In this document: positions 11,197-64,000 of the stretch, one piece after another
Numbering within the stretch: the first letter of the stretch is position 1
Layout: each line of letters opens with the position of its first letter
Source of the DNA: Malacoraja senta
Taxonomy: Eukaryota
Direction: 5' to 3'
Length of the DNA: 64,000 bases
Assembly (NCBI GenBank): GCA_038087875.1
Contig: JAXLNO010002732.1
Location: 62,001 to 126,000 of the forward strand
The notes under the pieces: generated by a model
What the model saw: only the letters and a program-made list of their open reading frames with translations
Told to the model about the DNA's origin: nothing
Database searches by the model: none
Program-made: the position numbers and the translations under genes

Positions 11197-12760
11197 TATA
11201 ACCATATAACCATATAACAATTACAGCACGGAAACACGCCATCTCGGCCCTTCTAGTCCGTGCCGAACACTTATTTTCCCCTAGTCCCATCTACCTGCAC
11301 TCAGACCATGACCCTCCATTCCTTTCCCATCCATATACCTATCCAATTTATTTTTAAGTGATAAAATCGAACCTGCCTCCACCACTTCCACTGGAAGCGC
11401 ATTCCGCACAACTACCACTCTCTGAGTAAAGGAGTTCCCCCTCATGTTACCCCTAATCTTCTGTTCCTTAATTCTCAAGTCATGTCCTCTTGTTTGAATC
11501 TTCCCTACTCTCAATGGGAAAAGCTTATCCACGTCAACTCTGTCTATCCCTCTCATCATTTAAAGACCTCTATCAAGTCCCCCTTAACGTTCTGCGTTCC
11601 AAAGAATAAAGACCTAACTTGTTCGACCTTTCTCTGTAACTTAGTTGTTGAAACTCAGGCAACATTCTAGTAAACCTCCTCTGTACTCCCTCTATTTTGT
11701 TGACATCCTCCCTATAATTAGCCGACCAAAATTGTACACCATACTCCAGAATTGGCCTCACCAATGCCTTGTACAATTTTAACATTACATTCCAGCTTCT
11801 ATACTCAATGCTCTGATTTATGAAGGCCAGCACACCAAAAGCTTTCTTTCCCACCCTATTTACATGAGATTCCACCTTCAGGGAACTATGCACAGTTATT
11901 CCTAGATCCCTCTGTTCAACTGCATTGCTCAATTTGCTACCATTTACCATGTACGTCCTATTTTGATTTGTCCTGCCAAGATGTAGCACCTCACACTCAT
12001 CTGCATTAAACTCCATCTGCTATCTTTCAGCCGACTCTTCCAAATGGCCTAAATATCTCTGTAGACTTTGAAAATCGACTTCATTATCCGCAACACCACC
12101 TATCTTAGTATCATCTGCATACTTACTAATCCAATTTACCACACCACCATCCAGATCATTAATGTACATGCCAAACAACAGTGGACCCAACACAGATCCC
12201 TGAGGCACCCCACTAGTCACCGGCCTCCAACCTGACAAACAGCCATCCACCATTACTCTCTGGCATCTCCCATTCAGCCACTGTTGAATCCATCTTGCTA
12301 CTCCACCATTAATACCCAACCATTGAACTTTCTTAACCAACCCTCCATGAGGAACCTTGTCAAAGGCCTTACTGAAGTCCATATAGACAACATCCACTGC
12401 TTTACCCTCATCAATTTCCCCAGTAACCTTTTCAAAAAATTCAAGATTAGTCAAACATGACCTTCCAGGCACAAATCCATGTTGACTGTTCCTAATCAGA
12501 TCCTGTTGTTCCAGATGCTTATATATATTATCTCTAAGTATCCTTTCCATTAATTTGCCCACCACTGACGTCAAACTAACAGGTCTATAATTGCTAGGTT
12601 TACTCTTAGAACCCTTTTAATACAATGGAACAACATGCGCAGTACGCCATCCTCCGGCACTATTCCCGTTTCTAATGGCATTTGAAATATTTCTGTCATA
12701 GCCCCTGCTATTTCTACACTAACTTCCATCAAGACTTATCCACTTTTATATATTTTTTAA
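11197..12760 (-). mobile_element. CR1 LINE (second subfamily), RT to 3' end, with an (ttatatgg)n tail
   Basis: ORFs 12020-12574 (QHGFVPGRSCLTN...DFSKAFDKV...[10 protein letters not shown]...YADDTK) and 11573-12016; tail tataaccatataaccatataacaattaca at 11197. Confidence 0.93.
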
Positions 12761-13874
12761 AGTGTCAGTACTTCCTCTTCTTTTAATCTCATAGTTTCCA
12801 TAGCTTTTCTACTTGTTTCCCTTACCTCACATAATTCAATATCCTTCTCCAGAGATGTTCTCCAGAGATGCTCCCTAACATTTGTCGTTTCAGGTCAGGA
12901 CCCTTCCGGTTTGAGTGGGCCAGTGGAGTAGAGAAGCCAAGGCATTTGTTGCACCAACAGTGGATATAAAAAGGTCCAGAGAGGGTAGAAGGGTGGGTAG
13001 GGGGAGAGGCGGGGGGGGGGGGATGTTGAAGACTGGAGACAGGATTGTCACTGGATGGATAGGATTCTCTCCCATAAAGAAAAGCTCAGAGGTGGCAGTG
13101 GAGCCCAACGTCCCTATGTTCCCAATGTAGGGAGTCCAGAACCAGGGGGTCACAGTTTAAGAATAAGACTCGCTGAGTCACTCCACCTTTTATCTTGGTC
13201 TATTAATGGATTCAAATCTACCTTAGATCTCCTTTTATCATCCTGCTTGGCACTCTCCACCAGCATTTTTGATACAGGTTCCTTTGTTTCTAAATACATA
13301 GAGTGAATTTTAAAGCTCTGATCTGTTCAATATCTCGCAAACTGTGAACCCACTTCAAGTTGATGGATGGAATGGAGCCCGTCCGTCTCTCATGGTTACG
13401 GATGCAGTTCATTGTGATGTCGCCGGCCAGGCACATTATGAGGTCACCTCTGATTATGATGGTTTACAAACTTGCGATCTTATGAATGGAAGGCCGGCCC
13501 AGAAGGGAATAAACCACTTCACCAAATGACCACAGGTCACAGTGGTTATAACCAACTGGACTCAAGTGTTAGATACAAGGAACTCAGTTCAATTGAGTTT
13601 ATTGTCACGTGTACAGAGAAATGCTTTTTGTCGCATGTTAAAAACAGTTAGCAGAAAGACATTGCATGACTACAATCGAGCCATTTGCAATGTATAGATA
13701 CATGGTAAAGGAATAACGTTTAGTGCAAGGTAAAGCCAGCAAGGATAGTCCGAGGGTCACCAATGAGGTAGATAGTAGTTCAGAACTGCTCTCTGGTTGT
13801 GGTAGGATGATTTAGTTGCCTGGTAACAGCTGGGAAGAAACTGTCCCTGAATCTGGAGGTGTGCGTTTTCACAC

Positions 13875-14410
13875 TCCTGTACCTTTCCTAATTTGCAGAA
13901 GGACATTCTTACTATTGAGGGAGTGCAGCGTAAGTTCACCAGGTCAATATCCAGGGTGGCGAGACTTACGTATGATGAAAGAATGGGTAGACTGGGCTTG
14001 AATTCGCTGGAAATGAGAAGGATGAGAGGGTATCTTATGAAAACATATAACATTCTTAAAGGAGTTAAGGCTAGATGCAGGAACAATGTTCCCGATGTTC
14101 GGGGAGTCCAGAACCAGGGGTCACAGTTTAAGAATAACGGGTTAGGCCATTTAGGACTCAGAAGAGGGAAAACATTTTCACGCAGAAAATCTGTAGAATT
14201 CTCTGCCACAGAAGGCAGTGGAGGTCAATTCACTGGATGTTTTCAAGTGAGTGTTGGATGTGGCTCTTTGGGCTAAGAGAATCAAGGGATATGGGGAGAT
14301 AGCAGGAATGGGGTATTGATTTTGGATGATCAGCCAAAATCATATTGTAAGGCGGTGCTGGCTCGAAGGGCCGAATGGCCTACTCCTGCACCTATTTTCT
14401 ATGTTTCTAC
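13875..14410 (+). mobile_element. Degenerate CR1 3' fragment
   Basis: ORF 13893-14276 (DILTIEGVQRKFTR...RMRGYLMKTYNILKG) followed by the CR1 3' UTR. Confidence 0.8.
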
Positions 14411-14556
14411 GTCATGGTGAGTCCAGCACTCGTTGACGTCTGGTCCTGAAGACGGGTCCTGAACCAAAACGTCACCCACTCATGTTCTCCAGAGATGCTG
14501 CTCAACCCGCTGAGTTACTCCAGCACAAACAATATTAAATCTCAAGTGTTTTCATT

Positions 14557-14826
14557 TCGAGATACAGTGTGGCAACGGGCCCTTTGGCCCACCGAGTCCA
14601 CGCCGACCAGTATTCACCTCTACACCCTCACTATCCTACACACTGGGGACTTTTTACCAAAGCCAATTAACCTACAAACCTGCACGTCTTTGGAGTGTGG
14701 GAGGAAACCGGAGCATCCGTAGAAAACCCACGCTGGTCACGAGGGGAACATACAAACTCTGTACAGACAGCACCTGGGTCTCCGGCGCAGTGAGGCAGCA
14801 ACTCTACCGCTGAGCCACACTGCCAT
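14557..14826 (-). mobile_element. HE1/V-SINE-type SINE
   Basis: V-core and tRNA-like head on the minus strand. Confidence 0.75.
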
Positions 14827-15242
14827 GTTGGGGAAAAATACTTTAAAAACAGCAGAATATTTTTGCCATTTGCCAAATGAGAGTTGTCTATAGTCAAAGA
14901 GTGTGTAGTTTGTTCCTGGCACGAAAATACTTCTGCTTTATCAGTTTCACGCTTAACTCTATAAACCTAAAGACTCCATTGTTGGAATGCAATTCAATAT
15001 TTGACAAATCTGAACACCTTAACAGACAGATATAAAGCACACAGAGGGATTACTGGCGTACATTTTCCCTTTGTAGTCCCTGTGGCAGAGGGTTTTTCTG
15101 ATGCTCTAAGCCATGCCAATCCAGATATGATTGAATGACGGAGAGGACTTGATGTACCAAATGGAGAAGGAACATCTCATTGGGTTTTAAAGTTTGCAGA
15201 GGGCTGACATACAACTTCCTTAGCATCAAGTGAATTGATCAA

Positions 15243-15530
15243 CATGGTGGCGCAGCGATAGACTAAGAGTTGCTGCCTCACAGTGCCAGAGACCCGGGTT
15301 CGATCCTGTCTACGTGTGCGTGTAGTTTGTACGTTCTCCCTGTGACCCACGTGGGATTCCTTCCGGTGCTCTGGTTTCCTCCCACATTCTAGAGATGTGC
15401 CAGTGTGTAGGTTAATTGACGTCTGTAAATTGCCCCTAGTGTGAAGGATATAGGACTAGTGTACAGGTGATCGTTGGTTCGCGTGGGCTCGGTGGGCGGA
15501 AGGGCCTGTTTTCATGCCATCTCTCTAAAA
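15243..15530 (+). mobile_element. HE1/V-SINE-type SINE
   Basis: catggtggcgcagcgatag...cccgggttcgatcctg...gtttgtacgttctccctgtgacc...gtaggttaattg. Confidence 0.85.
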
Positions 15531-15821
15531 CAAACAATTGCCGTTACTTCGTTGGTCTCAGTTTAACATTGCTTGTGAAAGTCAGCAAAGTACAAGATTC
15601 TTTCTATAGCCCGCAGACCAGTGAGCCCATGTGTTCATATCTTTAACCAGACAGTCAGAACTTTTTTAGTTTAGTTTAGAAATACAGCACAGAATCAGGC
15701 CCTTCAGCCCACCGCGTCCACGTCAACCAGCGATACCCGTGCATTAAACTACCCCACGCACACTAGGGACAATTTACATTTATACCAAATTAACCTACTC
15801 TCTAGACTGACATCTTCAACC

Positions 15822-17475
15822 TGTCACATGCCCAAGCAGTTGGCCCCACGTGCCTTAAAACCACCTCCCTCGTGCCGGTGCCAAAACACTCCACTGCGGC
15901 GAGCCTCAACGACTTCTGCCCAGATGCACTTACTCCCATCATCACTAAGTGCTTCGAGAGGCTGGTCCAGGCACACCTCAAAGGCTGCCTACCTCCCACA
16001 CTGGATCCCTATCAGTTCGCCTACCGCAAGAACAGGAGTACGGAGGATGCCATCTCAACGGCACTTCACTCCGCCCTCTCCCACCTCGACAACAGAGACA
16101 CCTATGTGAGAATGCTGTTCATCTCAGCATTTAACATCATTATCCCCTCAAAACTGATGACCAAACTCAGCGACCTGGGCATCGACCCCTCTCTCTGCAA
16201 CTGGATACTGGACTTTCTAACCAACAGACCGCAGTCTGTTAGGTCAGACAACCACACCTCTTCAACCCTCACCCTGAACACCGGCGTTCCACAGGGCTGT
16301 GTGCTGAGCCCCCTCCTCTACTATTGTATTGTATATCTTTATTGTCATTTCCTGAGTATTCGCATACCCAGAGGAAACAAAAAAATGTTCCTCAACCAGT
16401 GTCCATTTCAGTGTGCAGTGAAAAATAAATAGAAGTAAAAATACATATATCATGAACAAATTAACACTCTACTCTACTAAACATCAACAGGCGTTCCGAT
16501 CGGCAGCGGCACGACAGTGGCTCTGCTGCAGTGTGTCCAGGTTCGTGGTTGGTGCACGATACTTTGGCAGGGGGCAAAGTCCGTTTATCAGTCTTATAAC
16601 CTGCAGGAAGAAGCTGAGGAGCATCCTGCTGGTTTTGCACCTAATGCTCTGGTACCTCTTCCCAGATGGCAGGATGGAGAATATGTGATGGGATGGGTGG
16701 TAGGGGTCTTTGATGATGGAGATGGCTCTGCTGATACATCTCTTCCTGTATATGTCCAGCAGGAAAGGGAGTGGAGCACCAATAATCCTGCTGGCGGTCT
16801 TCACAATCCTGTCTAGTTGGTGCCGTTCGTACGCCTTGCAGCTCCCGAACCAGGAAGTGATGCCGGAGGTTAATGTGCTCTCGATTGTCCTCCTATAAAA
16901 AGTTCGTAGGTGTGTAGTGGGGAGACCTGCTTTACGTAGTCTTCGGAGAGGGTGTAGTCGCTGCTGGGCTCTCTTGACCAGTGCTGTGGTGTTGGTCGTG
17001 GACGTCAGGTCATCTGACAGGTGGAGTCCTAGAAACTTCAAGCTGTTGACCCTTTCCACATCAGCTCCATCGATGTGCAGAGGTGTATGGTGTTGTTTTC
17101 CCGCCCTCCTGAAGTCAACCACCATCTCCTTAGTTTTTCCCACGTTGAGAATGAGGTTGTGGGATTTGCACCATCCTACTCCCTCTTCACTTACGACTGC
17201 ACACCTGTACATGGTACTAACACCATCATCAAGTATGCAGATGATACAACAGTGATTGCCTCATCAGCAACAACGATGAGTCGGCCTATAGGGAGGAGGT
17301 CCAGCTCCTAGCAGCATGGTGCGCTGACAACAACCTGGCCTGTAACTATAAGAAGACCAAGGAGCTCATTGTGGACTACAGAAGGTCTAGGGGCGGCACG
17401 CACACCCCCATCCACATTAACGGGACGGAGGTGGAACGTGTTTCCAGCTTCAGGTTTCTGGGGGTCAACATCTCT
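15822..17475 (+). mobile_element. Rex1/Babar LINE RT fragment interrupted by an antisense Rex copy
   Basis: ORF 15872 ([20 protein letters not shown]...[18 protein letters not shown]...[13 protein letters not shown]) resumes after 17175 as SLFTYDC...KYADDTTV...DNNLA. Confidence 0.8.
16323..17175 (-). mobile_element. Rex1/Babar LINE 3' fragment (nested insertion)
   Basis: ORF 16484-17212 (WCKSHNLILNVGKTKEMVVDFRR...KFLGLHLS...AQQRLHPLRRL); tail acaataaagatatacaatacaata; ctact repeated at 16318-16322 and 17176-17180. Confidence 0.85.
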
Positions 17476-18119
17476 GTTGTTCCATTATTCTATGTTCACT
17501 CTTCTGGGTGAGATGCTAACTGCATTTCGCTGTGTCTGTACTCTACACTGCACAATGACAATAAAGATTGATTCTGAATCTGAAACCTACATGTCTTTGG
17601 ATTGTGGGAGAAAACTGAAGATCTCGGAAAAAAAACCCACGCAGGTCAAGGGGAAAATGTACAAATCTGTACTGACAGCACCCGTAGTCAGGATCGAACC
17701 CGGGTCTCTGGCACTGCAAGCAGTGTAAGCAAAGAACTCTACCGCTGCGCCACCGTGCCCGCCCCTTTTCTCCAGGACAGAGATGGAATACTAGAGGGCA
17801 TAGCTTTAACGAGAGTGGGGCAAAGTTTAAAGATGTGTGGAGCAAGTTATAAGAGGTTAGAGTGCATCTTGAGTGTGTTGCCAGGGGTGGTGGAGGCAGA
17901 TACAACAGTGGCATTTAACAGGTTTTTGGATAGGCAGGGAATGGAGGGATAATGATAATGTGCAGACAGATAAGAGTTGGCAGTGGTGTCACGTTTAGCA
18001 CAGGCATTGTAGGCCGAAGGGGCGGTTCCTGTGTTGTACTGTTCTATGTTTTGAACCTCAGGTTATCAATCTTTATGTTTGGTGGGGAAGGGAATGAGAT
18101 GAGTTAAGACAAGCTGATT

Positions 18120-18414
18120 TAAACTTTAGCGATATAGAGTGGAAACTGGCCTTTCGGCCCACCAAGACCACCCCGACCAGCGATCACCCCGTACGCTAGC
18201 ACTACCCTACGCACTAGGGACAATTTACAAATTTTCCAAAGCCAATTAACCTTGAAAACCTGCAGGTCTGTGGCGTGTGGGAGGAAACCGGAGCACCCGG
18301 AGAAAACCCACGCTGTCACAGGAAGAAAGTACAGGCAGCATCCCCGGTCAGGATTGACCCCGGGTCTCTGGCGCTGTAAGGCAGCAACTCCATCGCTGCG
18401 CCACCGTGCCGCCC
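18120..18414 (-). mobile_element. HE1/V-SINE-type SINE
   Basis: Full head and V-core on the minus strand. Confidence 0.8.
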
Positions 18415-18539
18415 AAATAGTTGCACATCAGATTAGACAAGTTAGGAAGAAGAACGTGTCCAACATTGTAGATTCAATTGCGGAGTTCAATTACTTCAGG
18501 CATATATAAATGCTAGGCGCCGCTGTTATAACCATATAA

Positions 18540-19320
18540 CCATATAACAATTACAACAATTTTGGCTGTTGAGTAGAGCAACTACTCGTGAATAAAAAAC
18601 TGCTGTGACAGTCCGGAGTCGCCTTCCAGAGGGTAGTGATTTAAATAGTTTGTGGCCAGGGTGAGAGGGGTCAGAGATGATCTTACCCACTCGCTTCCTG
18701 GCCCTTGCAGTGTACAGTTCATCAATGGAGGGAAGGTTGCAGCCAATAACCTTCTCTGCTGATTGGACGATTCGCTGCAGCCTCCAGGTGTCGTGCTTGG
18801 TGACTGAGCCAAACCAGACCATGATGGGGATGGTGAGAACAGACTCTACGATGGTCGTGTAGAATTGGACCATCATTGCCTGTGGCAGATTGTGTTTCCT
18901 CAGCTGCCGCAGGAAGTACATCATCTGTTGTGCCTGTTTGACTGTGGAGTCCATGGTAGCCCCCCACTTATGGTCCTTGGAGATGATGGTTCCCAGGAAC
19001 TTAAAAGATTCCACAGATGTGACTGTGGTGTTGTTGATGGTGAGTGGGGTGAGGGGAGGGGGAGCTCTCCTAAAGTCTACAATCAATTCCACTGTCTTAA
19101 GAGAATTGAGCTCCAGGTTGTTGCTACGGCACCAGGACGCCAGCTGTGACACTTGATGTCTGTAGGCCGATTCCTCCCCATCCTGGATCAGTCCAATCAG
19201 GGTTGTGTTGTCCGCAAACTTGAGAAGCTTGACTGACAGAGGTGAAGTCGTTGGTGTAGAGAGCGTAGAGGAGAGGAGAAAGTACGCAGCCTTGCGGTGC
19301 TCCTATGCTGAGTGTTTACG
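18540..19320 (-). mobile_element. Rex1/Babar LINE 3' fragment
   Basis: ORF 18526-19152 (WCRSNNLELNSLKTVELIVDFRR...KFLGTIIS...LRQLRKHNL); KFADNTTLIG upstream. Confidence 0.88.
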
Positions 19321-19468
19321 GGTCCCAGATGTACTTTCCCAGCCAAAGTAAGTCAAATGGGCACTGGTGGGTGAAGAGTTGTAAACTAAGACCCTTGGAC
19401 AGGTGAGTGGACAAGACAGGTTTAGAGGGGACAATGGACACAAGTGTGTGGGCCTTTGGTACCTTCTC

Positions 19469-19716
19469 AAGATGGCGTCTTGAACGGCGGGACCTTAACA
19501 AGATGGCCGCCGGCATCCGACCAATCATCGGCGCCGACCTCACATGCCCTCACCAGGATGGCCGCCATCAACCCCTCACAAAGATGGCCGCCGGCATCCG
19601 ACCAATCAGCGGTGGCGATCTCACCTGCCCTCACCAAGATGGCCACCGACATCCGACCAATCAGTGGTGCCGACCTCACCACGATGGCCGCCATCAACCC
19701 CTCATAAAGATGGCCG
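19469..19716 (+). repeat. Composite GC-rich tandem repeat carrying YY1-like and CCAAT motifs
   Basis: Seven GATGGC motifs (five as AAGATGGC) and three ccgaccaatca blocks in 55-81 bp imperfect units. Confidence 0.8.
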
Positions 19717-19793
19717 ATGGAACTCTCTGCCACAGAAGGGATCAGGGGGTACGGAGAGAAGGCAGGTACAGGATACTGAGTTGGATGATCAGC

Positions 19794-20321
19794 TGTGAGA
19801 AAGGGGTTAATAGGTATAAGTTGATTTAGACAAGAACCCTTTGTATAGTAGGGAGGATAGGGGGAGTGAAGGACGAGTACAGATGGTGACTTTTTCAAGG
19901 ATGAGAACAGAGAAGATAGCAACAGCCCAGCCAAGAACAGGGGTAAGGGTCAGGAGAAACACTCTGTGCGCATGGGCAATGAACTTACATGAATATGTAC
20001 ACACACCCACTATGACAAGATGTCTCATTTAAATGCACATGCGATGCATGATATGGGAGGTGTCTTTGACGTCGGGTGGACGTTCCAGGACGTTCTCGTG
20101 GGAATGTGGGCTTTATGTTATGATTGGAAGAAGCACAATGGGGAGGGATGAGGGTGTGACAATGATACCCATGAAATGTATAAAGATAGAAGTCATCCCG
20201 ATCCTCGGTGTGCCTCTAGGGGACATCAGAGGAGAGGCACCTATTCTGCAGAATATGATTTGAATAAAAAGCTTCTTTGCCGACTTTGTCTCTAAAAGCG
20301 TTTGTGATTTTGAATCTCACA
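19794..20321 (+). mobile_element. 5' LTR (528 bp)
   Basis: TG...CA termini with a 7-bp inverted repeat; TATAAA at 20179-20184; AATAAA at 20263-20268. Confidence 0.95.
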
Positions 20322-20326
20322 ATTTT

Positions 20327-20345
20327 TGGGGGCTCGTCTCGGGAC
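20327..20345 (+). promoter_or_regulatory. Primer-binding site, tRNA-Pro
   Basis: tgggggctcgtctcgggac vs the canonical PBS-Pro TGGGGGCTCGTCCGGGAT (1-nt insertion), 5 nt after the LTR. Confidence 0.85.
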
Positions 20346-21379
20346 CCCCACTCCGGCTGGCTGACGACGGTATACAGAAGAAGGGACGGTGCACCCCGTT
20401 GATTTTAACGGTCCCAGACCCCTAGATTGCCGTCAGCGGTTTGGGCGAGTGGTATCCCTGAACAGAGACTCAGCAAAGAAGTGGGAGTAGTTGGAAATCC
20501 GATCGGGAGGAAGATCGGGGGAAATTTGCGAAGGAGCCAAATCGAGTGATTCTTGTGTACAGGACCCGGGTAAGAAAACTGACTATTAAGTACTACTCGG
20601 GCGATTGGGATAAGACCTTGTGGATACCGCCCTGAAGAATTCAGGGGTCTGTACGGGCAAGGCAGGAAAATGGCGGGAAAATAGATCGGGGGGGAAATTC
20701 CGATCGGGAAGATGGGCCATGAGAACGGAAAGCCCACCAGGGAGGGGAAGGGCGGTAAGCCCGACCCCAGCATTCTGCCTGATAGTCCGTTGGGGCGAAT
20801 GCTGAGCCTCTGGGGGCAGGGAAATACCCAGGGAATTGGAGGACAAAAATGATTGAGCCTCTGGGGGCAGAGAAATACCCAGGGAATTGGAGAAGACAAA
20901 AATGATTTGATTCTGTTATTTTGAGTTTTAATACATGTAAAAGATGTTGCATTTATTTGAAGTAAGAATGGAACGAATGTGATTTGTGTGTAAAAACCGG
21001 TTTGGAATGAAAGAGGAAGTTTATATATGTGATAATTATTTTGTTTATTGTATTTGTAGACCACATTGTAAGAGTAAGTAAGTACGTTTTATTAAAATCA
21101 AAAATGTTCACTGTAGGTAGGTGTATGTTCCTTTAAATAAATCAGGTCATGGTGAAAGGCGCCGAACAGCTGTAAGATAACGATTAATGTTTGTATCCTC
21201 GTAAGAAGGGGAAGTTGTGAAACCAGCTTTTGGTTTTTCTGATGTTCTTTTAGATTTCTAGTCAGTAAAGATAATTTGGAAAATTGTTACTAGTGCTAGG
21301 AATTGGACATTTAAAATAGTGGTGAATATGGATTGAAATAATTGGAAATAAGTTAATTGGTAAACATTCAAGTTTAGAA

Positions 21380-22800
21380 AGAAAGGAGAGAGAGGCAGTT
21401 AGAAGATAACAGAAGTAGAAAAACGACAGGCGTGAAAGTAATAAAGCAGGAGGAGTCAGTGGAAGATTTTTGCAAGGAGGCTAGAATATTTGAGAAGCAA
21501 GAAATTGAGTTTAGAATTAGAAAGAAGGCATACCAGAAAGGATTAAAGTTGGAAGCATTGGGATAAAGTGATGAGACTGTTTTAAAGAGAAAAGAGAAGG
21601 ACAGACACGGATTATCCCTTGGGGCACCCATAAACTGAAAGGGCTAAAAAATACCTCACCCTATATCCCTGATGGGGGAGGAAATGGATTAGGGCTTTGG
21701 AGGAGGAGAACATGGGACGATTATTGATCATGGAAGATTTGAAGGCACTGTTGGTAAAAGTGATAGGAACCACTAAAGTGACAGAACTACTGAAGATGGA
21801 TGGTATAAACTGATGCGAACAATGTAACAAGCAATGGCATACTGTTTGACACAGTCAGGCAGAGGGTATGGCAGACCCTCAGACAATGTTACCCACTTAA
21901 GAGGAACCCCAAGGAACAAGGGGAGATACAGAAGGAAAGGCAAATAGCCTATCTGGAAAACCAGCTGAAAAGGTGGAGAGTTGATTGATGAACATTATAT
22001 TATGAACTACTGTGGTGGATGTCATTCTTCTTAAAGTCAAGCAGATTCAGCGAACAGTTGGTCTCTGCGGTCGAGAAATATCGCAAAGATAGGAAAAAGA
22101 TTTGCAAACCAGCAGGAGGAGGTGTTGTCAATAAACAATGGACCTAAGTGAGTCCTATGACGGAACCAAGCAGGGCCAGAGAATTACATGCCAATAATGA
22201 ATGTCTTTGGGGTACGTTTCCTCAAAAAGTCCTATCAGGAGTGAAATTAATCTGGATATAAGCCCTAACAGGACTGGGGACCCCAAGAGAGAAAGGGATT
22301 TAAAGGAGGATTTGTTGGTATTGTTCCATAAGTAACAAGCGATGTAAGAGAGAGAGAGAGATTTTAAAAAAATACTTCAGAATGTAGGACAGAGTATGAT
22401 AACCTCGGGAAAAGGCAGGATATAGTTCAGACTAGATTAGGTATAAGCCCTGTAGTGTCGTTTATGATGAATAAGGTAATTAAGAGGTTTGGTAGACGTA
22501 CAGAAATCAGCTTTGACAACGGATTGTTTTCATTTAGGGAGTAGCTAAGTTGGCGATAGAGACCCTTAGAGTAAAATACACATTTGGGTATGTAACACCT
22601 GCAGTCACAGGCATGGTGGAAAGAATAAATGGAACATTGAAGGTTAATATAAATAAGATTTGTTTAATTACAAAGTTGAATGGGATCGATGCCCTGCCAT
22701 TGGCACTGAAGAGATGTTGCATGCAAACTAACCGAGCAGGTGGCACAATGGAGAGGTCCCTACAAGAGACCGAGTTTGGAACAGTTAAAGATAGAATTTA
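21380..22800 (+). pseudogene. Heavily decayed gag and integrase remnants of ERV-A
   Basis: PDGGGKWIRALEE...EDLKALLVKVIG-like gag stretch near 21660-21770 (frameshifted); integrase-like TGMVERINGTLKVNINKICLITKLNGIDALPLAL at 22600-22720. Confidence 0.6.
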
Positions 22801-23094
22801 AAAAGTATATGAAACAGTTAATTATGATATACAAGTCTATTTATGAACAGGAAAAGTAAAAGCTGTTGGAGGTGGACCAGGAGGAAGGACCCTTTAAACC
22901 TGAAGACAAGGTGTATGTATGAGTTTTCTAAACTACCGACCGATGTTCAGGTAGAAGGTTGATATACCTGGTACCATTTCAATAATACCTGAGGGCTGTC
23001 CCGCAGGTACGAATAGATAATAGCCCTGAGGTAAGTGAACAGGAGGACAAGAGATGTGCGAAAAGAGTAGAGTTTGAACAAGAACGTTGTTTGA

Positions 23095-24050
23095 CATCAG
23101 TGGTGGGCAAAATAATGGAAAGCATACTTAAGACAATATAAGAATTTGGATAAATAGGGTAGGATTAGGAAGAATTAGCATGGATTTGTGATTGTGATGT
23201 TTGACTAATCTTGAATTTTTTGAAAAGGTTATTAGGGAAATTGATGAGGGTAAAGTGATGGATGTTGTCTAGATGAACTTCAGTAAGGCCTTTGACAAGG
23301 TTCAATAAGGAAATAAGGTTGGTTAAGAAGGGTTAGTAAGGAATAGGAAGATGGATTAAAAAGTGGCTGTATGGGAGATGTCAGAGAGCAATGGTGGATG
23401 GATGTTTGTCAGGTTGGAGGTCAGTGACTAGAGGGGTACCTCGGGGATGTGTGTTGGGTCCACTGTTGTTTGTCATGTGAATCAATAATCTGGATGCTGG
23501 TGTGGTAAAATAGATTAATAAGTATGTAGATGATACTAAGATAGGTGGTGTTGTGAATAATGAAGTAGATTTTAAAAAGTGTACAGAGAGATTTAGGTCA
23601 TTTGGAAGAATGGGTTGAAACATGACAGATGGGTTTAATGTTGATAAGTGTGAGGTGATACATCTTGGCAGGACAAATCAAAATTGAATGTACATGGTAA
23701 ATGATTGTGAATTGAGGAATGAAGTTGAATAGAGGGATCTAGGAATAACTGTGCATGGTTCCCTGAAGGTGGAATTTCATGAAGATAGGATGGTAAAGAA
23801 AGATTTTGGTGTGTTGGCCTTTATAAATCAGAGCATTGTGTATAGAAGTTGGGTTGTAATGTTAAATTGTACAAGGTATTGGTGAGGTCAATTGTGGAGT
23901 ATGGTGTATAATTTTGGTAGGCATAATTATAGGAAGGATGTCAACAAAATAGAGAGAGTACAGAGGAGATCAATTAGAATGTTGACTGGGTTTCAGCAAC
24001 TAAGACACAGAGAAAGGTTGAACAAGTTAGGTCTTTATTATTTAGGAACG
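23095..24050 (+). mobile_element. CR1 RT/ORF2 fragment embedded in ERV-A
   Basis: Colinear with the reverse complement of about 11600-12575 (gacatcagtggtgggcaaa...cttcagtaaggcctttgacaagg...ttgggtccactgttg...gatgatactaagataggtgg...aaggttgaacaagttaggtcttta); all frames broken. Confidence 0.9.
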
Positions 24051-24124
24051 ATAGAAGGGGTCCCAACAAATACAAGGGAATGATGTATTCCTAAGGAACT
24101 ATTTACTGGCAGTATCTCGTTCTC

Positions 24125-25330
24125 TTACAGAATTAAGAACCAAGGGGCTGCTGGCACAGAGTCCCCATCTCGACTTTCCAATCCATTCTGTGAAAGCGGG
24201 GGACTGGGATCTTGTAACATCATGGAAGGAAGAAAAGCTGCAACCTAAGTGGACTGGACCCTACCTGGTGTTACTAATCACCGAGACAGCAGTACGAACA
24301 AAAGAAAAAGGGTGGACACACGCAAGCCGATTTAAGGGTCCTGTGGAGGCCCCACCAAACAATATCAGCCCGTGGACTGTGCGCAAAGGAGAGGAACCAT
24401 TGACTTTAATATTTAACAAGAACCCGCGGGAAAAATGAAGATTTTGTGTTGGTGGGTCGTGTGTTGGGTGGTTACCCAACTATGTAAGCATACAGAGTGT
24501 TCAAATGCAGGAAAGTGGAAGGATGTGCAGATAGAACAGGGAGAATGAGCCTAAGGATTTGAAGATAATGATAGTAGCAGGAGAAACAGAATTAAGGCAA
24601 TTATATGAGGAGGGAATACCTACAGGAGGGAAGGGAGCCAACACCTGGCTTGCCTGGATGATGTACACGGCCAGGAGTATGCAACACACCAATTGCTACG
24701 CCTGTGCCGGAGCTAAGCCTCAGCTGGTTCCAGAACCATTTCCCTTGAATTGGGATAGGACACCTGGGGCTATGTCATGTATACTACAGCTATTCACGAA
24801 TCCCATCCTACCAAAGGATGCGACCTGCCAGAGTTATCATTACCTACTCCCGGCTAGCAACAACAATACAAAGGGCCGAAGGACAGACCCTTCGACACAC
24901 ACATATATATAGATGCGATAGGGGTGCCAAGAGGGGTACCCGATGAATTCAAAGCCAGAAACCAGATAGCTGCGGGCTTTGAGTCCATACTCTTCTGGTG
25001 GTCCACACTTAATAAAAATGTGGACTGGATCAACTACCTATACTACAATCAACAACGCTTTATAAATTACACTCAAGATGCGGTTGAAGGATTAGCGGAA
25101 CAACTGACAGATACCAGCCTAATGGCCTGGCAAAATCGCATGGCCTTAGACATGCTACTGGCTGAGAAGGGAGGGGTGTGTGTAATGTTTGGGGAACAAT
25201 GTTGCACCTTCATCCCCAACAACATTGCTCCTGATGGGTCAGTATCGAGAGCCCTAGCAGGTCTCACCTCCCTGTCTATCGAATGAGAGGAAGATAGAGA
25301 GAGGCGAAGATTCTGCTGCTAGCATTAGAG
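24125..25330 (+). pseudogene. env: ERV-A integrase C-terminus and internally deleted env
   Basis: WKEEKLQPKWTGPYLVLL; env ATG at 24435; SU CYAC motif; TM WQNRMALDMLLAEKGGVCVMFGEQCC (ISD plus CX6CC); four deletions relative to the 50062-51999 copy. Confidence 0.9.
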
Positions 25331-25384
25331 AAGGGGCAGATAGTCTAAATCAAAGATTGCAGTAGCAAAAGTAAAAGTGTGGAT

Positions 25385-25926
25385 TGTGAGAAAGGGGTTA
25401 ATAGGTATAAGTTGATTTAGACAAGAACCCTTTGTATAGTAGGGAGTATAGTAGGGAGGATAGGGGGAGTGAAGGACAAGTACAGATGGTGACTTTTTCA
25501 AGGATGAGAACAGAGAAGATAGCAACAGCCCAGCCAAGAACTAGGGTAAGGGTCATAAGAAACACTCAGTGCGCATGGGCAATGAACTTACATGAATATG
25601 TACACACACCCACTATGACAAGATGTCTCATTTAAATGCACATGCGATGCATGATATGGGAGGTGTCTTTGACGTCGGGTGGACGTTCCAGGACGTTCTC
25701 GTGGGAATGTGGGCTTTATGTTATGATTGGAAGAAGCACAATGGGGAGGGATGAGGGTGTGACAATGATACCCATTAAATGTATAAAGATAGAAGTCATC
25801 CCGATCCTCGGTGTGCCTCTAGGGGACATCAGAGGAGAGGCACCTATTCTGCAGAATATGATTTTGAATTAAAAGCTTCTTTGCTGACTTTGTCTCTAAA
25901 AGCGTTTGTGATTTTTGAATCTCACA
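25385..25926 (+). mobile_element. 3' LTR (542 bp)
   Basis: About 9 substitutions and 3 indels vs the 5' LTR, including a 12-bp duplication gtatagtaggga; TATAAA at 25782-25787; poly(A) signal changed to ATTAAA at 25868-25873. Confidence 0.95.
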
Positions 25927-49510: not shown

Positions 49511-50066
49511 TGTGAGATGCAAAATCACAAACGCTTTTAGAGACAAAGTCGGCAAAGAAGCTTTTTATTTAAATCATATTCTGCAGAATAGGTGCCTCCT
49601 CTGATGTCCCCTAGAGGCACACCGAGGATCGGGATGTCTTCTATCTTTATACATTTCATGGGTATCATTGTCACACCCTCATCCATCCCCATTGTGCTTC
49701 TTCCAATCATAACATAAAGCCCACATTCCCACGAGAACGTCCTGGAACGTCCACCCAACGTCAAAGACACCTCCCATATCATGCATCGCATGTGCATTTA
49801 AATGAGACATCTTGTCATAGTGGGTGTGTGTACATATTCATGTAAGTTCATTAGGCATGCGCAGATATGTTTGACCTTATGTACTTTCTCCCTTTCTACT
49901 TACTTCTCAAATCTTCTGCTGAATTTGCTACTTTTTATCTAGAATTTCTCTCTGTTCTATATATCGTTATTTTCTATTTTACCAGCAGTCTGGCTTCTGC
50001 TGACACCCCAAGCCATTTTTCTATCCCTAGTCTAAATCAACTATGTCTGTTAACTCTTTCCTCACA
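49511..50066 (-). mobile_element. LTR (556 bp) sharing R/U5 with family A but with a different U3
   Basis: TGTGAG...TCTCACA termini; 49511-49853 is nearly identical to the downstream ~340 bp of the 19794 LTR; most of 49860-50030 does not align. Confidence 0.9.
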
Positions 50067-51999
50067 ATCCACCCTTTTCTTTTTTGCTACGCAACCTTTG
50101 ATTTATACTATCTTCCTTTTCTAATGCTAGCAGCAGATTCTTCGCCTCCCTATCCCCCTCTCGTTGGTTATACTGTGTTCTGAAAGCCATCATGGTGGCG
50201 GCGCTGTTCTTTGTCAGGGCTGTTTCTATCAATCGCTGAGCCAATCCCCGTACGCAGGGAATGATACAACATCCGAACAAACAGTGACCCCACCATGACT
50301 ACAACTGATGTTAGAGCTGAGGTAAAGATGTGCTTCCATTTCCCAAACCAGGATTCTAGAAACCCAGTCCAGGAGTTGTCTACTCCAGAGTTCTCAGCCA
50401 ATTCGATAGTCAGAGAGGTGAGACCTGCTAAGGCTCTTGACACTGACCCATCCGGAGCAGTGTTGTTGGGGATGAATGTGCAACATTGTTCGCCAAACAT
50501 TACACATACCCCTCCCTTCTCAGCCAGTAGCATGTCCAAGGCCATGCGATTTTGCCAGGCCATTTGGCTGGTAGCTGTCAGTTGTTCCGGTAATCCTTCA
50601 ACTGCATCTCGAGTGTAATTTATAAAGCGTTGTTGATTGTAGTATAGGTAGTTGATCCAGTCCACATTTTTATTAATTGTGGACCACCAGAAGATCATGG
50701 ACTCAAAGCCCGCAGCTATCTGGTTTCTGGCTTTGAATTCATCGGGTACCCCTCTTGTCACCCCTATCGCATCTATATATATGTGTGTGTCGAATGATCC
50801 TTTCACCCCTCTCTTTTGTCGTTGGCTTCCTTCATTGAGTTCTACAGCATGTTCTACTGCTATGGTGAAGGGCATCATCAGTTGTGTGAGGGTACAGGTT
50901 CCCGTCCAGGTAACCGGGGCCACAGGGTATTCTCCCCGCACCACCACCAGACATCGGCTCTACTGACTATCTGCTTTTTTAGCCAGGAGCTATTGAACAG
51001 TGGTCCCTGTTCCTCAGCCGTTATGTTATACGTCTGATTGCAGTTGAGCACCTTCCCCATATCCTGTCCCTCTGGGTTATTTCTTGTATAGCACTCAAAC
51101 CCCTCCTCCCCAAGAGGACTGGTAAATGGAGGAGGTCGAGGATCTTCCCTTCGGCCCTTCGTATTGTTGTTGCTGGTCGGAAATAGGTAATGATAATTCT
51201 GGCATATCACATTCTTTGGTAAGAGGGGATTCGTGAATAGCTGTAGTATACATGACATAGCCCTAGGTGTTCTATTCCAATTCAGGGGAAATGGTACTGG
51301 GACCAGCTGAGGCCTAGCTCCGGCGCAGGTGTAACAATTGGTTCATTGCATACTTCTGGCTGTGTACATCATCCAGGCAAGCCAGGTGTTGGCTCCTTTT
51401 TCCCCTGTTGGTATTCCCTTCTCATATAACTGCATTAATCCTGTTTCTCCTTCTACTATCATTATATTCAGATCCTTAGACTCATTCTCCCTGGTGACTT
51501 TGCTGACTACTGGTGGTGCTGGTGTTGCCCCGGGATCCCTATTCTGACTGTCATCTATCTTCAACACCTTTCCCCTATTCTCTTATCTTACCATCTCCCC
51601 ATCCCGCTTCACTTCTATCTCAAACTTCAGACATGCGTCCTTCCCTGTTTTATCTGCACATATCCAATACCTACCACTTTCCTGCATTTGAACACTCTGT
51701 ATGCTCACATATATACGTCCTGGCAATTTCTCGTTCGGGTTTTGATATATTTTCCACCTATCAGTTTGATAGGTGGGCTGATGCCACCCATCTCTTGATG
51801 AAGTGAACACCGCGTGCCAATTTCTACAGGGATGGGTGCATACATACATTCTATAGCCACACCACCATTTTCCTTTACATACATTAAATGGGATGGTGGT
51901 GGACCTTCTATTCTGTGGTATTGTGATTTTTATGCATGTTATATTACTCACGAGTTGGGTAACCACCCAACACACGACCCACCAACACGAAATCTTCAT
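50062..51999 (-). pseudogene. env: Full-length but disrupted env (gamma-type)
   Basis: Signal MKISCWWVVCWVVTQLVS; furin site RQKR; ISD WQNRMALDMLLAEKGG; CX6CC (CVMFGEQCC); TM anchor. Split over ORFs 51583-52062, 51343-51567, 50878-51258, 50168-50947 and 50062-50280. Confidence 0.9.
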
Positions 52000-53055
52000 T
52001 TTTCCCGCGGGTTCTTGGTAAATATTAAAGTCAATGGTTCCTCTCCTTTGCGCACAGTCCACGGGCTGATATTGTCTGGTGGGGCCTCCACAGGACCCTT
52101 AACTCGACTTGCGTGTGTCCACCCTTTCTCTTTTGTTCGTACTGCCGTCTCGGTGATTAGTAACACCAGGTAGGGTCCAGTCCACTTAGGTTGCAGCTTT
52201 TCTTCTTTCCACGTTTTTATTAATACCCAGTCTCCAGCCTTGACTGAGTGTATCGGGAAGTCCAGTGGTGGGCTCTGGGCCAGCAATCCTTTAATTTTTA
52301 GTTCTATATCATGCATCGCATGTGCATTTAAATTAGGCATCTTGTCATAGTGGGTGTGTGTACATATTCATGTAAGTTCATTAGGCATGCGCAGATATGT
52401 TTGACCTTATGTACTTTCTCCCTTTCTACTTACTTCTCAAATCTTCTGCTGAATTTGCTACTTTTTATCTAGAATTTCTCTCTGTTCTATATATCGTTAT
52501 TTTCTATTTTACCAGCAGTCTGGCTTCTGCTGACACCCCAAGCCATTTTTCTATCCCTAGTCTAAATCAACTATGTCTGTTAACTCTTTCCTCACAATCC
52601 ACCCTTTTCTTTTTTGCTACGCAACCTTTGATTTATACTATATCCTCCTTTCTAATGCTAGCAGCAGATTCTTTGCCTCCCTATCCCCCTCTCGTTGGTT
52701 ATACTGTGTTCTGAAAGCCATCATGGTGGCGGCGCTGTTCTTTGTCAGGGCTGTTTCTATCAATCGCTGAGCCAATCCCCGTACGCAGGGAATGATACAA
52801 CATCCGAACAAACACAGTAACCCCACCATGACTACAACTGATGTTAGAGCTGAGGTAAAGATGTGCTTCCATTTCCCAAACCAGGATTCTAGAAACCCAG
52901 TCCAGGAGTTGTCTACTCCAGAGTTCTCAGCCAATTCGATAGTCAGAGAGGTGAGACCTGCTCGGGCTCTTGACACTGACCCATCCGGACCAGTGTTGTT
53001 GGGGATGAATCGCCCGTTCACACACGTGCGCGTGGAGGGCGTGCATGTGTGCGGG

Positions 53056-54002: not shown

Positions 54003-57000
54003 GTTTGCTTTAAAAATGCTAAAGGGGGTTTGCTTTGAAAATGCAAAATGTTGTTTGGTTTGAAAATGGAAATGGTGGTTTGGTTTGAAAATGCAAATGG
54101 TGGATTGGTTCGAAAATGCTAAAGGTTTGGTTTGAAAATGCAAAAGGATTGGGTTGAAAATGCAAAAGTTGGTTTGCTTTGAAAATGCGAAAGATGTTTT
54201 GCTTTGAAAATGCAAAAGGTGGTTTGCTTTGAAAATGCAAAAGGTGGTTTGCTTCGCAAATGCAAAAGATGGTTTGCTTCGAAAATGCAAATGGCGGTTT
54301 GCTTCGAAAAGGCAAATGGCGGTTTGCTTCGACAATGGAAAACATTTTTGCTTTGAAAATGCAAACGGTGCTTTGCTTTTAAAATGCTAACGGTAGTTTG
54401 CTTTGAAAATGCAAATGGTGTTTTGCTTTGATAATGCAAAAGGTTTGCTTTGAAAATGCAAATAGTGGTTTGCTTTGAAAATGCCAGAGGTGCTTTGCTT
54501 TGAAAATGCAAAAGTTGTTTGCTGTGAAAATGCTAAAGGTGGTTTGCTTCATACAAAAGGTGGTTTGCTTTGCAAAATGCAAAAGGTGGTTTGCTTTGAA
54601 AATGCAAAACGTTGTTTGCTTTGAAAATGCGAAAGGCGGTTTGCTTTGAAAGTGCAACAGGTGGTTTGGTTTGATTGAAAATGCAAAAGGTGCTTTGCTT
54701 TGAAAATTCAAAAGGTGCTTTGAAAATGCAAAATGTTTGCTTTGAAAATGCAAATGGTTTGTTTTCAAAATGCAAATGTTTGCTTTAAAAATGCAAAAGG
54801 TTTACTTTGAAAATGCAAAATGTTTGCTTTGAAAATGTAAAAGGAGGTTCGGTTTGAAAATGCAAATAGTGCTTTGGTTTGAAAATGGAAATGATGGTTT
54901 GGTTTGAAAATGCAAATGGTGGATTGGTTTGAAAATGTAAATGGTGGTTTGGTTTGAAAATGCAAATGGTAGTTTTGTTTGAAAATGCAAATGGTGGTTT
55001 GCTTTGAAAATGCAAAAGGTGGTTTGCTTTAAAAATGCTAACGGTAGTTTGCTTTGAAAATGCAAATGGTGTTTTGCTTTGATAATGCAACAGGTTTGCT
55101 TTGAAAATACAAAAGGTTTGCTTTGAAAATGCCAAAGGTGCTTTGCTTTGAAAATGCAAAAGTTGTTTGCTGTGAAAATGCAAAAGGTGGTTTGCTTCAT
55201 ACAAAAGGTGGTTTGCTTTGCAAAATGCAAAAGGTGGTTTGCTTTGAAAATGCAAAATGTTGTTTGCTTTGAAAATGCAACATGTGGTTTGCTTTGAAAA
55301 TACAAAAGGTGGTTTGCTTTGAAAATGCAAAAGGCGGTTTGCTTTGAAAATACAAAAGGCTGTTTGCTTTGAAAATGCAAAAGGCAGTTTGCTTTGAAAA
55401 TGCGAAAGGCGGTTTGCTTTGAAAATTCAAAAGGTGCTTTGAAAATGCAAAATGTGTGCTTTGAAAATGCAAATGGTTTGTTTTCAAAATGCAAATGTTT
55501 GCTTTAAAAATGCAAAAGGTTTACTTTGAAAATGCAAAATGTTTGCTTTGAAAATGTAAAAGGAGGTTTGGTTTGAAAATGCAAATAGTGCTTTGGTTTG
55601 AAAATGGAAATGATGGTTTGGTTTGAAAATGCAAATGGTGGATTGGTTTGAAAATGTAAATGGTGGTTTGGTTTGAAAATGCAAATGGTAGTTTTGTTTG
55701 AAAATGCAAATGGTGGTTTGCTTTGAAAATGCAAAAGGTGGTTTGCTTTAAAAATGCTAAAGGTGGTTTGCTTTGAAAATGCAAATGGTATTTTGCTTTG
55801 AAAATGCAAAAGGTTTGCTTTGAAAATGCAAAGATTTGCTTTGAAAATGCAAAACGTTTGCTTCGAAAATGCAAAAAGTATCCTGAAAATGCAAAAGGTG
55901 GTTCCATTTGAAAATGAAAAAGGGGGTTCGGTGGTTTGGTTTGAAAATGCAAATGGTGGTTTGGTTTGAAAATGCAAATGATGGTTTGCTTTGAAAATGC
56001 AAAAGGTGGTTTGGTCTGAAAATGCAAATGGTGGTTTGGTTTGAAAATGCAAATGGTGGTTTGGTTTGAAAATGGAAATGATGGTTGGGTTTGAAAATGC
56101 AAATGGTGGTTTGGTTTGAAAATGGAAATGGTGGTTTGGTTTGAAAATGCAAATGATGGTTTGGTTTGAAAATGCAAATGCTGGTTTGGTTTGAAAATGC
56201 AAATGGTGGATTGGTTCGAAAATGCTAAAGGTTTGGTTTGAAAATGCAAAAGGATTGGGTTGAAAATGCAAAAGGTGGTTTGCTTTAAAAATGCTAATGG
56301 TAGTTTGCTTTGAAAATGCAAATGGTGTTTTGCTTTGATAATGCAACAGGTTTGCTTTGAAAATACAAAAGGTTTGCTTTGAAAATGCCAAAGGTGCTTT
56401 GCTTTGAAAATGCAAAAGTTGTTTGCTGTGAAAATGCAAAAGGTGGTTTGCTTCATACAAAAGGTGGTTTGCTTTGCAAAATGCAAAAGGTGGTTTGCTT
56501 TGAAAATGCAAAATGTTGTTTGCTTTGAAAATGCAACATGTGGTTTGCTTTGAAAATACAAAAGGTGGTTTGCTTTGAAAATGCAAAAGGCGGTTTGCTT
56601 TGAAAATACAAAAGGCTGTTTGCTTTGAAAATGCAAAAGGCAGTTTGCTTTGAAAATGCGAAAGGCGGTTTGCTTTGAAAATTCAAAAGGTGCTTTGAAA
56701 ATGCAAAATGTGTGCTTTGAAAATGCAAATGGTTTGTTTTCAAAATGCAAATGTTTGCTTTAAAAATGCAAAAGGTTTACTTTGAAAATGCAAAATGTTT
56801 GCTTTGAAAATGTAAAAGGAGGTTCGGTTTGAAAATGCAGAAGGGGGTTCGGTTTGAAAATGTAAAAGGAGGTTTGGTTTGAAAATGCAAATGGTGCTTT
56901 GGTTTGAAAATGCAAATGATGGTTTGGTTTGAAAATGCAAATGGTGGATTGGTTTGAAAATGTAAATGGTGGTTTGGTTTGAAAATGCAAATGGTGGTTT

Positions 57001-63000: not shown

Positions 63001-64000
63001 TAAAAATGCAAAAGGTTTACTTTGAAAATGCAAAGTGTTTGCTTTGAAAATGTAAAATGAGGTTCGGTTTGAAAATGCAAAAGGGGGTTCGGTTTGAAAA
63101 TGTAAAAGGAGGTTTGGTTTGAAAATGCAAATGGTGCGTTGGTTTGAAAATCGAAATGATGGTTTGGTTTGAAAATGCAAAAGGTGGATTGGTTTGAAAA
63201 TGTAAATGGTGGTTTGGTTTGAAAATGCAAATGGTAGTTTTGTTTGAAAATGCAAATGGTGGTTTGCTTTGAAAATGCAAAAGGTGGTTTGCTTTAAAAA
63301 TGCTAAAGGTGGATTGCTTTGAAAATGCAAATGGTATTTTGCTTTGAAAATGCAAAAGGTTTGCTTTGAAAATACAAAAGGTTTACTTTGAAAATGATAA
63401 TGGTGGTTTGCTTTGAAAATACAAAAGGTAGTATGCTTTCAAAATGCAAAATGTGGTTTGCTTTGAAAATACAAAGGGTGGTTTGCTTTAAAAATGCAAA
63501 AGGTGGTATGGTCTGAAAATGCAAAAGGTGGTTTGCTTTGAAAATGCAAAATGTTTGCTTTGAAAATGCAAATGGTTTGCTTTGAAAATGCAAAGATTTG
63601 CTTTGAAAATGCAAAGATTTGCTTTGAAAATGCAAAAGGTTTGCTTCGAAAATGCAAAAAGTATCCTGAAAATGCAAAAGGTGGTTCCGTTTGAAAATGA
63701 AAAAGGGGGTTCGGTGGTTTGGTTAGAAAATGCAAATGGTGGTTTGGTTTGAAAATGCAAATGATGGTTTGGTTTGAAAATGCAAATGCTGGTTTGGTTT
63801 GAAAATGCAAATGGTGGATTGTTTCGAAAATGCTAAAGGTTTGGTTTGAAAATGCAAAAGGATTGGGTTGAAAATGCAAAAGTTGGTTTGCTTTGAAAAT
63901 GCGAAAAATGTTTTGCTTTGAAAATGCAAAAGGTGGTTTGCTTTGAAAATGCAAAAGGTGGTTTGCTTTGCAAATGCAAAAGATGGTTTGATTCGAAAAT
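54003..64000. repeat. Satellite array of ~20-25-nt monomers (GGTGGTTTG[C/G]TTTGAAAATGCAAA[A/T]) with higher-order repeats
   Basis: Hundreds of variants of the TTTGAAAATGCAAA core; rare variants recur at fixed spacings (705-706, 1256, 2227 and 2910 bp); runs off the window end. Confidence 0.97.
61158..62222 (+). mobile_element. Young 5'-truncated CR1 inserted in the satellite
   Basis: [21 protein letters not shown]...KFADDTKLG, then an uninterrupted 256-codon ORF (61352-62122), the CR1 3' UTR and a (ctatgtat)n tail; flanked by tggtttggtttgaaaa on both sides. Confidence 0.95.

Follow-up and report, generated by a model that had tools for sequence, protein, structure and literature searches.

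Within a 64,000-nucleotide stretch of the genome of Malacoraja senta (GenBank assembly GCA_038087875.1, contig JAXLNO010002732.1, positions 62,001 to 126,000 of the forward strand; hereafter, the window), we analyzed an endogenous retrovirus (ERV) that occupies positions 19794..25926 and encloses a fragment of a CR1 long interspersed nuclear element (LINE). The window element is a real and well-resolved case of a LINE amplified inside an ERV, and its lasting surprise is a replication-linked loss of cytosine. We assign a probability of about 0.8 to the whole account, in which a CR1 inserted into a defective ERV, the resulting block moved into a younger ERV, the product was copied in trans, and cytosines were lost through biased reverse transcription. 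The history alone, i.e. the CR1 insertion and the recombination, is very likely.

Copy number, composition and origin of the chimeric family

The 1.94-Gb genome was searched for relatives of the window element. A 351-nt query spanning the 5' junction of the CR1 insert gave 1954 candidates, of which 40 were scored and all matched at 97-100%. Both CR1 junctions are present in 38 of 39 fetched loci, the remaining one stopping at a contig edge, which bears out the original prediction of a multi-copy family whose LINE was already inside the element and passed through retroviral cycles with it. With the insert alone as a query, all 30 examined top matches (40 listed, the element itself included) lie within an ERV and are chimeras, contrary to the caveat that the insert might be near-identical to another CR1 subfamily. 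Pattern searches with at most one mismatch detected the 5' junction at 418 sites, the 3' junction at 323 and an eroded internal motif at 375, and the controls at none; these numbers count sites rather than independent insertions, and the 418 include some precursors described below. About 320-420 sites in the genome share these CR1 junctions, the window element among them.

Many chimeras carry target-site duplications (TSDs) of integrase type, though the window copy itself has none. TSDs of 4-6 bp were found in 19 of 31 scorable loci (50 given, 38 with a pair of long terminal repeats, LTRs). Among the 12 loci without a TSD, six are duplicates of the window type, and non-window-type chimeras have a TSD in 19 of 25 cases. 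The LTR pairs of scored chimeras are 0-12 substitutions apart. The flanks of the window element recur in six of the 39 fetched loci, and some copies are arranged in tandem.

The chimera combines two retroviral families. Family A has the domains Gag_p30, RVT_1, rve, MLVIN_C and TLV_coat, its reverse transcriptase (RT) is closest to structures of the murine leukaemia virus (MLV) type, and copies with long open frames are present in the genome. Similarity of the window element to family A extends only up to 20926 and resumes at 24039, and the amino-acid identity of the integrase to family A is about 50% upstream of the CR1 piece and 85% downstream, so the integrase remnants come from two ERV families. 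As previously noted, the CR1 piece does lie between integrase remnants, but these belong to family B upstream and family A downstream. Family A, a class I ERV, thus supplied the LTRs and leader, the beginning of gag and the 3' pol/env, and 20927-24038 is a cassette of the older, defective ERV family B. With its LTR pair, primer-binding site, polypurine tract and coding relatives that share its ends, the window element fits a non-autonomous class I (gamma/epsilon-like) ERV; its longest stop-free sense stretch is 142 aa, and no intact gag, pol or env is present. A single cassette core is found with several LTR, leader and env subtypes (loci L021-L059 and L280-L299), as would be expected if members of family A have exchanged ends with it more than once.

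The precursor of the chimera also survives. One of 20 loci with a gag-like remnant (L298) is a different provirus with LTRs of its own; its 5' CR1 junction is the same as that of the chimera, but its CR1 extends as far as the 3' tail, with 93.5% identity to a free copy. All 40 scored matches of a tail-junction query, at 91-100%, belong to this precursor family, for which pattern searching yields 71 sites. TSDs of 4 bp are readable at some precursor copies, and all 11 printed family-B loci without this CR1 have the empty site, comparison with which yields the 4-bp TSD AAGA. These empty-site relatives also place the env deletion before the CR1 insertion. The precursors thus show the 5' truncation, the intact 3' tail and the TSD against an empty site that characterize target-primed reverse transcription, and CR1 entered family B through ordinary LINE insertion. 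The ERV had been said to have captured the CR1: acquisition is upheld, but it occurred by ordinary insertion, with tail and TSD, into another ERV, followed by recombination. Likewise, the reported lack of a TSD or CR1 tail at the insert holds for the window element, which lacks the tail and the right TSD copy, but not for the precursors, which have the full tail and the 4-bp TSD. A tree built from the CR1 segment of 7 free, 15 precursor and 10 chimeric copies groups the chimeras in a single clade (support 1.0), on a long branch nested among the precursors. All 30 examined loci with the eroded motif have the family-A junction. Another CR1, with an 8-bp TSD, lies in the family-B RT remnant as an independent insertion amplified to eight sites (L332, L333 and L334; C1, C14 and C5 of G000).

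At the 3' junction, CR1 and the family-A integrase share an exact AGAAGG (6 nt) within an imperfect 20-nt match; such microhomology, if not due to chance, is what copy-choice recombination would give. In the proposed history, an env-deleted family-B ERV gained a 5'-truncated CR1 and then amplified, as the precursor copies attest. Family-A sequence has replaced both ends, at the observed breakpoints 20926 and 24039-24058, presumably by copy-choice between co-packaged RNAs, the CR1 tail being lost at the short microhomology with the family-A integrase. The shared ends suggest that the product was then mobilized in trans by family-A proteins.

The window copy itself is not a simple insertion. Its 528-nt 5' LTR and 542-nt 3' LTR differ by 9 substitutions, exactly as originally estimated, plus 3 indels (12, 1 and 1 nt), and 5 of the 9 substitutions fall within 27 nt. 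The flanks, CAGC and ATGA, form no TSD, and in the surrounding repeat unit without the ERV (L150) the 5' flank runs on into a different sequence; judging from these sequences, the two flanks likely represent different loci that the copy joins. Since the flanks are mismatched and a TSD is lacking, the LTR difference (2%) is not a safe date, and the earlier use of the LTR pair to date one integration probably does not hold. The window copy of the ERV is duplicated together with its flanks on at least six other contigs, and window 11197-19793, comprising the free CR1 and the 5' flank of the ERV, belongs to a multi-copy unit that is tandem at ~36.2 kb on contig C3880.

No RNA data set is listed for the stretch itself. 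An RNA run of a related organism has reads from one strand on B-type and A-type integrase, and reads on the insert that are mostly free-CR1; it is uninformative on the chimera. In sequencing runs under three other organism labels, the CR1/integrase junction had no coverage, as judged from contigs, which cannot prove absence.

Strand-specific loss of cytosine

The CR1 piece is oriented in the sense of the ERV, as first described, but starts at 23089 rather than 23095. Its identity to the free CR1 at window 11595-12576 (minus strand) is 85%, and the reported divergence of about 12% between 23344-23584 and this genomic CR1 was reproduced (238 nt at 88% identity). However, this divergence is not a sign of an old CR1. 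An exact 26-mer is present at 7447 free CR1 sites, and 15 of 30 fetched copies span the whole segment and differ from their own majority by 0.2-2.8%, compared with 11% for the insert; sampling through an exact 26-mer leans young. The source subfamily nevertheless appears young by this measure, the CR1 of the precursors differs from it by only 11 fixed differences, and change inside the ERV was both accelerated and C-biased. In the window insert, 21 of 91 changes are synonymous and 8 create stops, which excludes an older coding CR1 subfamily.

Free CR1s (15 copies) have lost 0-3% of their C, precursors (13 copies) 3-17% and chimeras (48 copies) 36-42%; the corresponding change at other bases is 0.2-2.5%, 2.5-4.4% and 6.1-7.8%. 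Among the fixed chimera changes, 110 C positions account for 19 C>T, 14 C>A and 3 C>G, and 291 G positions for 17 G>A, 1 G>C and no G>T, with only 4 gains of C. In the CR1 insert, 45 of 106 C were lost versus 23 of 271 G (p=3e-13), and gains from A/T were 4 for C versus 20 for G (p=0.0015). The same asymmetry is seen in changes common to the precursors (C 37/141 vs G 30/400) and in common changes of the second CR1-in-B family (C 9/141 vs G 7/400), whereas changes in free CR1s are unbiased (C 26/141 vs G 70/400). An extra CR1 found inside one precursor copy alone has lost 3 of 104 C. The bias is seen in changes common to copies with a family-B backbone and is absent from most private changes.

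Retroviral parts of the cassette are affected as well. In the family-B RT remnant, the C content is ~0.13-0.16 for the most distant copies and has dropped to 0.09-0.12 for the precursors. On the chimera stem, C loss amounts to 31/90 in CR1, 20/88 in the B integrase and 15/93 in the B gag (CR1 vs gag, p=0.006). The family-A integrase tail differs from sampled A copies mostly synonymously (~25 to 15 codons) and likely stems from an unsampled A subfamily; since its differences are mostly synonymous, it is unusable for testing the C bias. Beyond these elements, sense-strand C at fourfold sites is 0.10-0.11, versus 0.27-0.29 for G, in CR1 and in two distant LTR families, L232 and L233 (the latter closest to Ty3), and such low values were not found in most of the sampled ERV-like open reading frames (ORFs). 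This distribution points to the cell where intracellular elements are copied. C-free stretches near L152 and L160 are simple repeats outside the ERV.

Explanations weighed

In the last step of the proposed history, C was lost strand-specifically to T, A and G with few C gains, a pattern that is observed in changes inherited among B-backbone copies. The cause may be misincorporation opposite template C during first-strand synthesis, e.g. if dGTP is limiting in germ cells; the loss would be damped in cis-acting regions. We hold this cause tentatively, at slightly under even odds. The rise of all C losses together with the fall of all C gains fits misincorporation under dGTP shortage and also selection for C-poor RNA. 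A broader proposal, for which the odds are somewhat adverse, is that defective retroviruses of this lineage may undergo a one-strand, replication-linked purge of C (to T, A and G, with almost no gains) that is strong enough to remove 40% of it while a LINE subfamily is still young, that the LINE passengers, acquired twice independently, would serve as natural reporters of a germ-line reverse-transcription bias, and that this bias may also shape the codon usage of CR1 and Gypsy elements in this genome.

Several observations weigh against the account as a whole. Private changes in the CR1 and integrase of the precursors also lean to C loss. In the precursors, the bias stands out in segment X, pol, integrase and CR1, and is weak or absent in the leader, gag, env/3' untranslated region and LTR; such unevenness is not what a pure polymerase bias predicts. 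Variation common to A-backbone chimeras, and to family-A copies, is symmetric. The least-degraded family-B copies have a fourfold-site C of 0.17, which means that the coding ancestor had not long been subject to the bias. A heavily eroded donor with a B backbone was found at none of the 30 loci examined of the 375 eroded-motif sites, and clear microhomology was not seen at the 5' A/B breakpoint. Finally, an autonomous family-B copy was not found through Gag_p30/rve searches, 20 further loci and 20 RT-related loci, which produced nothing above ~50% amino-acid identity with intact frames.

Under the same history, the loss of C could instead reflect selection on the parasite RNA, if C-poor filler rich in G, A and U folds less or is better packaged or copied by the helper; we regard this as plausible though doubtful. 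It would account for the sparing of leader and LTR and the region-specific pattern, for the suppressed C gains, and for the onset of the loss once coding is gone, and predicted folding is indeed weaker, at -33.4 rather than -42.7 kcal/mol per 200 nt. However, weaker folding is expected from C loss whatever its cause, predicted pairing is equal for lost and kept C (p=0.25), and dozens of single sites would have to be selected. In addition, A-backbone copies show no ongoing bias though their B remnants retain 13% C.

Sense-strand deamination or damage (AID/APOBEC-like or transcription-linked), combined with the bypass of abasic sites in a small number of source copies, is an unlikely cause under the same history. 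C>T, C>A and C>G changes together are consistent with deamination plus bypass, and in the window copy WRC sites lost 21 of 38 C versus 24 of 68 at other sites. This enrichment does not recur, however, in the precursors or the second family, which serve as independent sets (p=0.27-0.84), and the lost C are unclustered (p=0.19); hence neither the context preference nor the clustering typical of AID/APOBEC hypermutation is found. Nor does deamination predict suppressed C gains, and the usual signature of retroviral deaminases is G>A on the sense strand.

It is very improbable that the CR1 was taken directly from CR1 RNA by a template switch, or from an older C-poor subfamily, its divergence reflecting age or the comparator. 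The microhomology at the 3' junction and the young-leaning sample of free copies would suit this reading, but direct capture entails no TSD and microsimilarity at both ends, and the precursors have a TSD and a tail. It is contradicted by the empty and filled sites; moreover, the few fixed differences of the precursors, the non-coding pattern of drift in the insert (few synonymous changes, several stops) and the exclusively chimeric top matches speak against it. One CR1 insertion in one provirus, followed by segmental duplication or assembly redundancy, is scarcely tenable, for despite the recurring window flanks and the tandem arrays, most copies have their own flanks and TSDs, several LTR types and positions on many chromosomes, which contradicts it.

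Table 1. Parts of the window element and the free CR1 used for comparison (window coordinates)
Feature	Position	Strand	Remarks
5' LTR, family A type, TG...CA	19794..20321	+	no TSD with 3' flank
Primer-binding site	20327..20345	+	variant among copies
Family-A leader and gag start	20346..20926	+	ATG at 20712; family-A similarity ends at 20926
Family-B non-coding C-poor segment	20927..21370	+	6-10% C
Family-B gag-like remnant	21371..22310	+	broken
Family-B pol/integrase remnant	22374..23083	+	reaches its C-terminal end
5'-truncated CR1 ORF2 (RT) piece	23089..24038	+	sense to ERV; frames broken; ~40% of C lost
CR1/family-A integrase crossover zone	24039..24058	+	imperfect 20-nt similarity; final AGAAGG (24053-24058) common to both
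C-terminal portion of family-A integrase (MLVIN_C) and start of env	24059..24481	+	
Family-A env remnants (TLV_coat)	24482..25284	+	deleted
Polypurine tract	25367..25384	+	
3' LTR	25385..25926	+	
Free 5'-truncated CR1, source subfamily	11197..12760	-	comparator of the original prediction; within multi-copy ~36-kb unit

The features of the window element are listed in Table 1. The primer-binding site and polypurine tract, formerly called intact, are recognizable but differ by a few bases from those of other copies. We take the primer-binding site to be of the tRNA-Pro type; a search of the window by ARAGORN found no tRNA. The gag start of family A contains a 51-nt tandem duplication (20803-20907). 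The gag-like remnant of family B is presumably gag by its position and resemblance, and gave no gag match in Pfam. AAGA at 23080-23083, the end of the family-B integrase remnant, is the left copy of the CR1 TSD, and 5 extra nt (23084-23088) separate it from the CR1 piece, whose equivalent region in a free copy has the RVT_1 domain.

Other family-A sequences were encountered. A second piece, at window 49511-53009 (minus strand), has a fuller env and a 3' LTR, with a tandem duplication spaced at 2.5 kb, and this rearranged form recurs on many contigs. At L153:6919-8949 (minus strand), a family-A protease/RT frame continues stop-free into L1 ORF2-like sequence (677 aa). At L160 and L169, a family-A provirus either follows a gag-bearing provirus of another LTR subtype immediately downstream or is nested in it. 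Window 54003-64000 consists of 25-bp satellite repeats with a higher-order arrangement, and a CR1-like piece breaks the array near 61460-62211.

Relation to known systems and significance

The closest parallel is recKoRV, the recombinants of KoRV and PhER (PMC6112702). As in the available text of that source, the 5' LTR, leader and 3' env/LTR of a young ERV enclose the middle of an unrelated, older and degraded one, new insertions have TSDs, and one core occurs with several LTR types; recKoRV also has microhomologies at some of its breakpoints, to which the short match at the 3' junction may correspond. Here, by contrast, the old ERV held a LINE insert that supplied the 3' crossover sequence, hundreds of sites exist, and the full series of empty, filled and recombinant forms is present; C erosion is unmentioned for recKoRV in the available part of PMC6112702.

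ETn/MusD is the model for non-coding ERVs mobilized in trans (PMC6466679; bioRxiv 10.1101/2022.10.18.512801). According to the accessible sections of PMC6466679, a non-coding LTR element there outnumbers coding relatives with the same ends, as it does here. The trans mobilization of the class II ETn is experimental, whereas that of the present class I family is deduced, and the source of the foreign middle is resolved here. In LTR-mediated retroposition of mRNA, template-switch capture is accompanied by secondary amplification (PMC5131818, in the portion available); internal ORFs are likewise replaced by foreign sequence, with junctions of median 6-bp microsimilarity, but in our case the LINE inserted itself with a TSD, and no double switch onto cellular RNA took place. 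Lentiviral genomes are A-rich and C-poor, down to 13.7% C (PMC3511177, accessible text), and share the sense-strand C poverty of a reverse-transcribed genome. In the chimeras, however, the non-coding filler is down to 6-8% C while most G persists, both C>A and C>G are common, and a known starting sequence allows the change to be traced. The available part of PMC5753468 holds nothing on LINE-in-ERV families, and neither a published amplified family of this kind nor such C loss was found in the literature searched, most subscription papers, supplements and repeat libraries being outside its scope.

The koala already provides a case of an old ERV rescued through recombination with a new one; here, all stages survive in one genome and a LINE served as the recombination bridge. 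Two cautions follow: the divergence ages of LINE pieces inside ERVs can mislead, as can the LTR dates of copies without a TSD. The known starting sequence of the LINE offers a rare direct read-out of non-coding change during ERV replication, and the strand-specific loss of C that it reveals, unlike the usual G>A, bears on whether mutation or selection lies behind the biased base composition of retroviruses.

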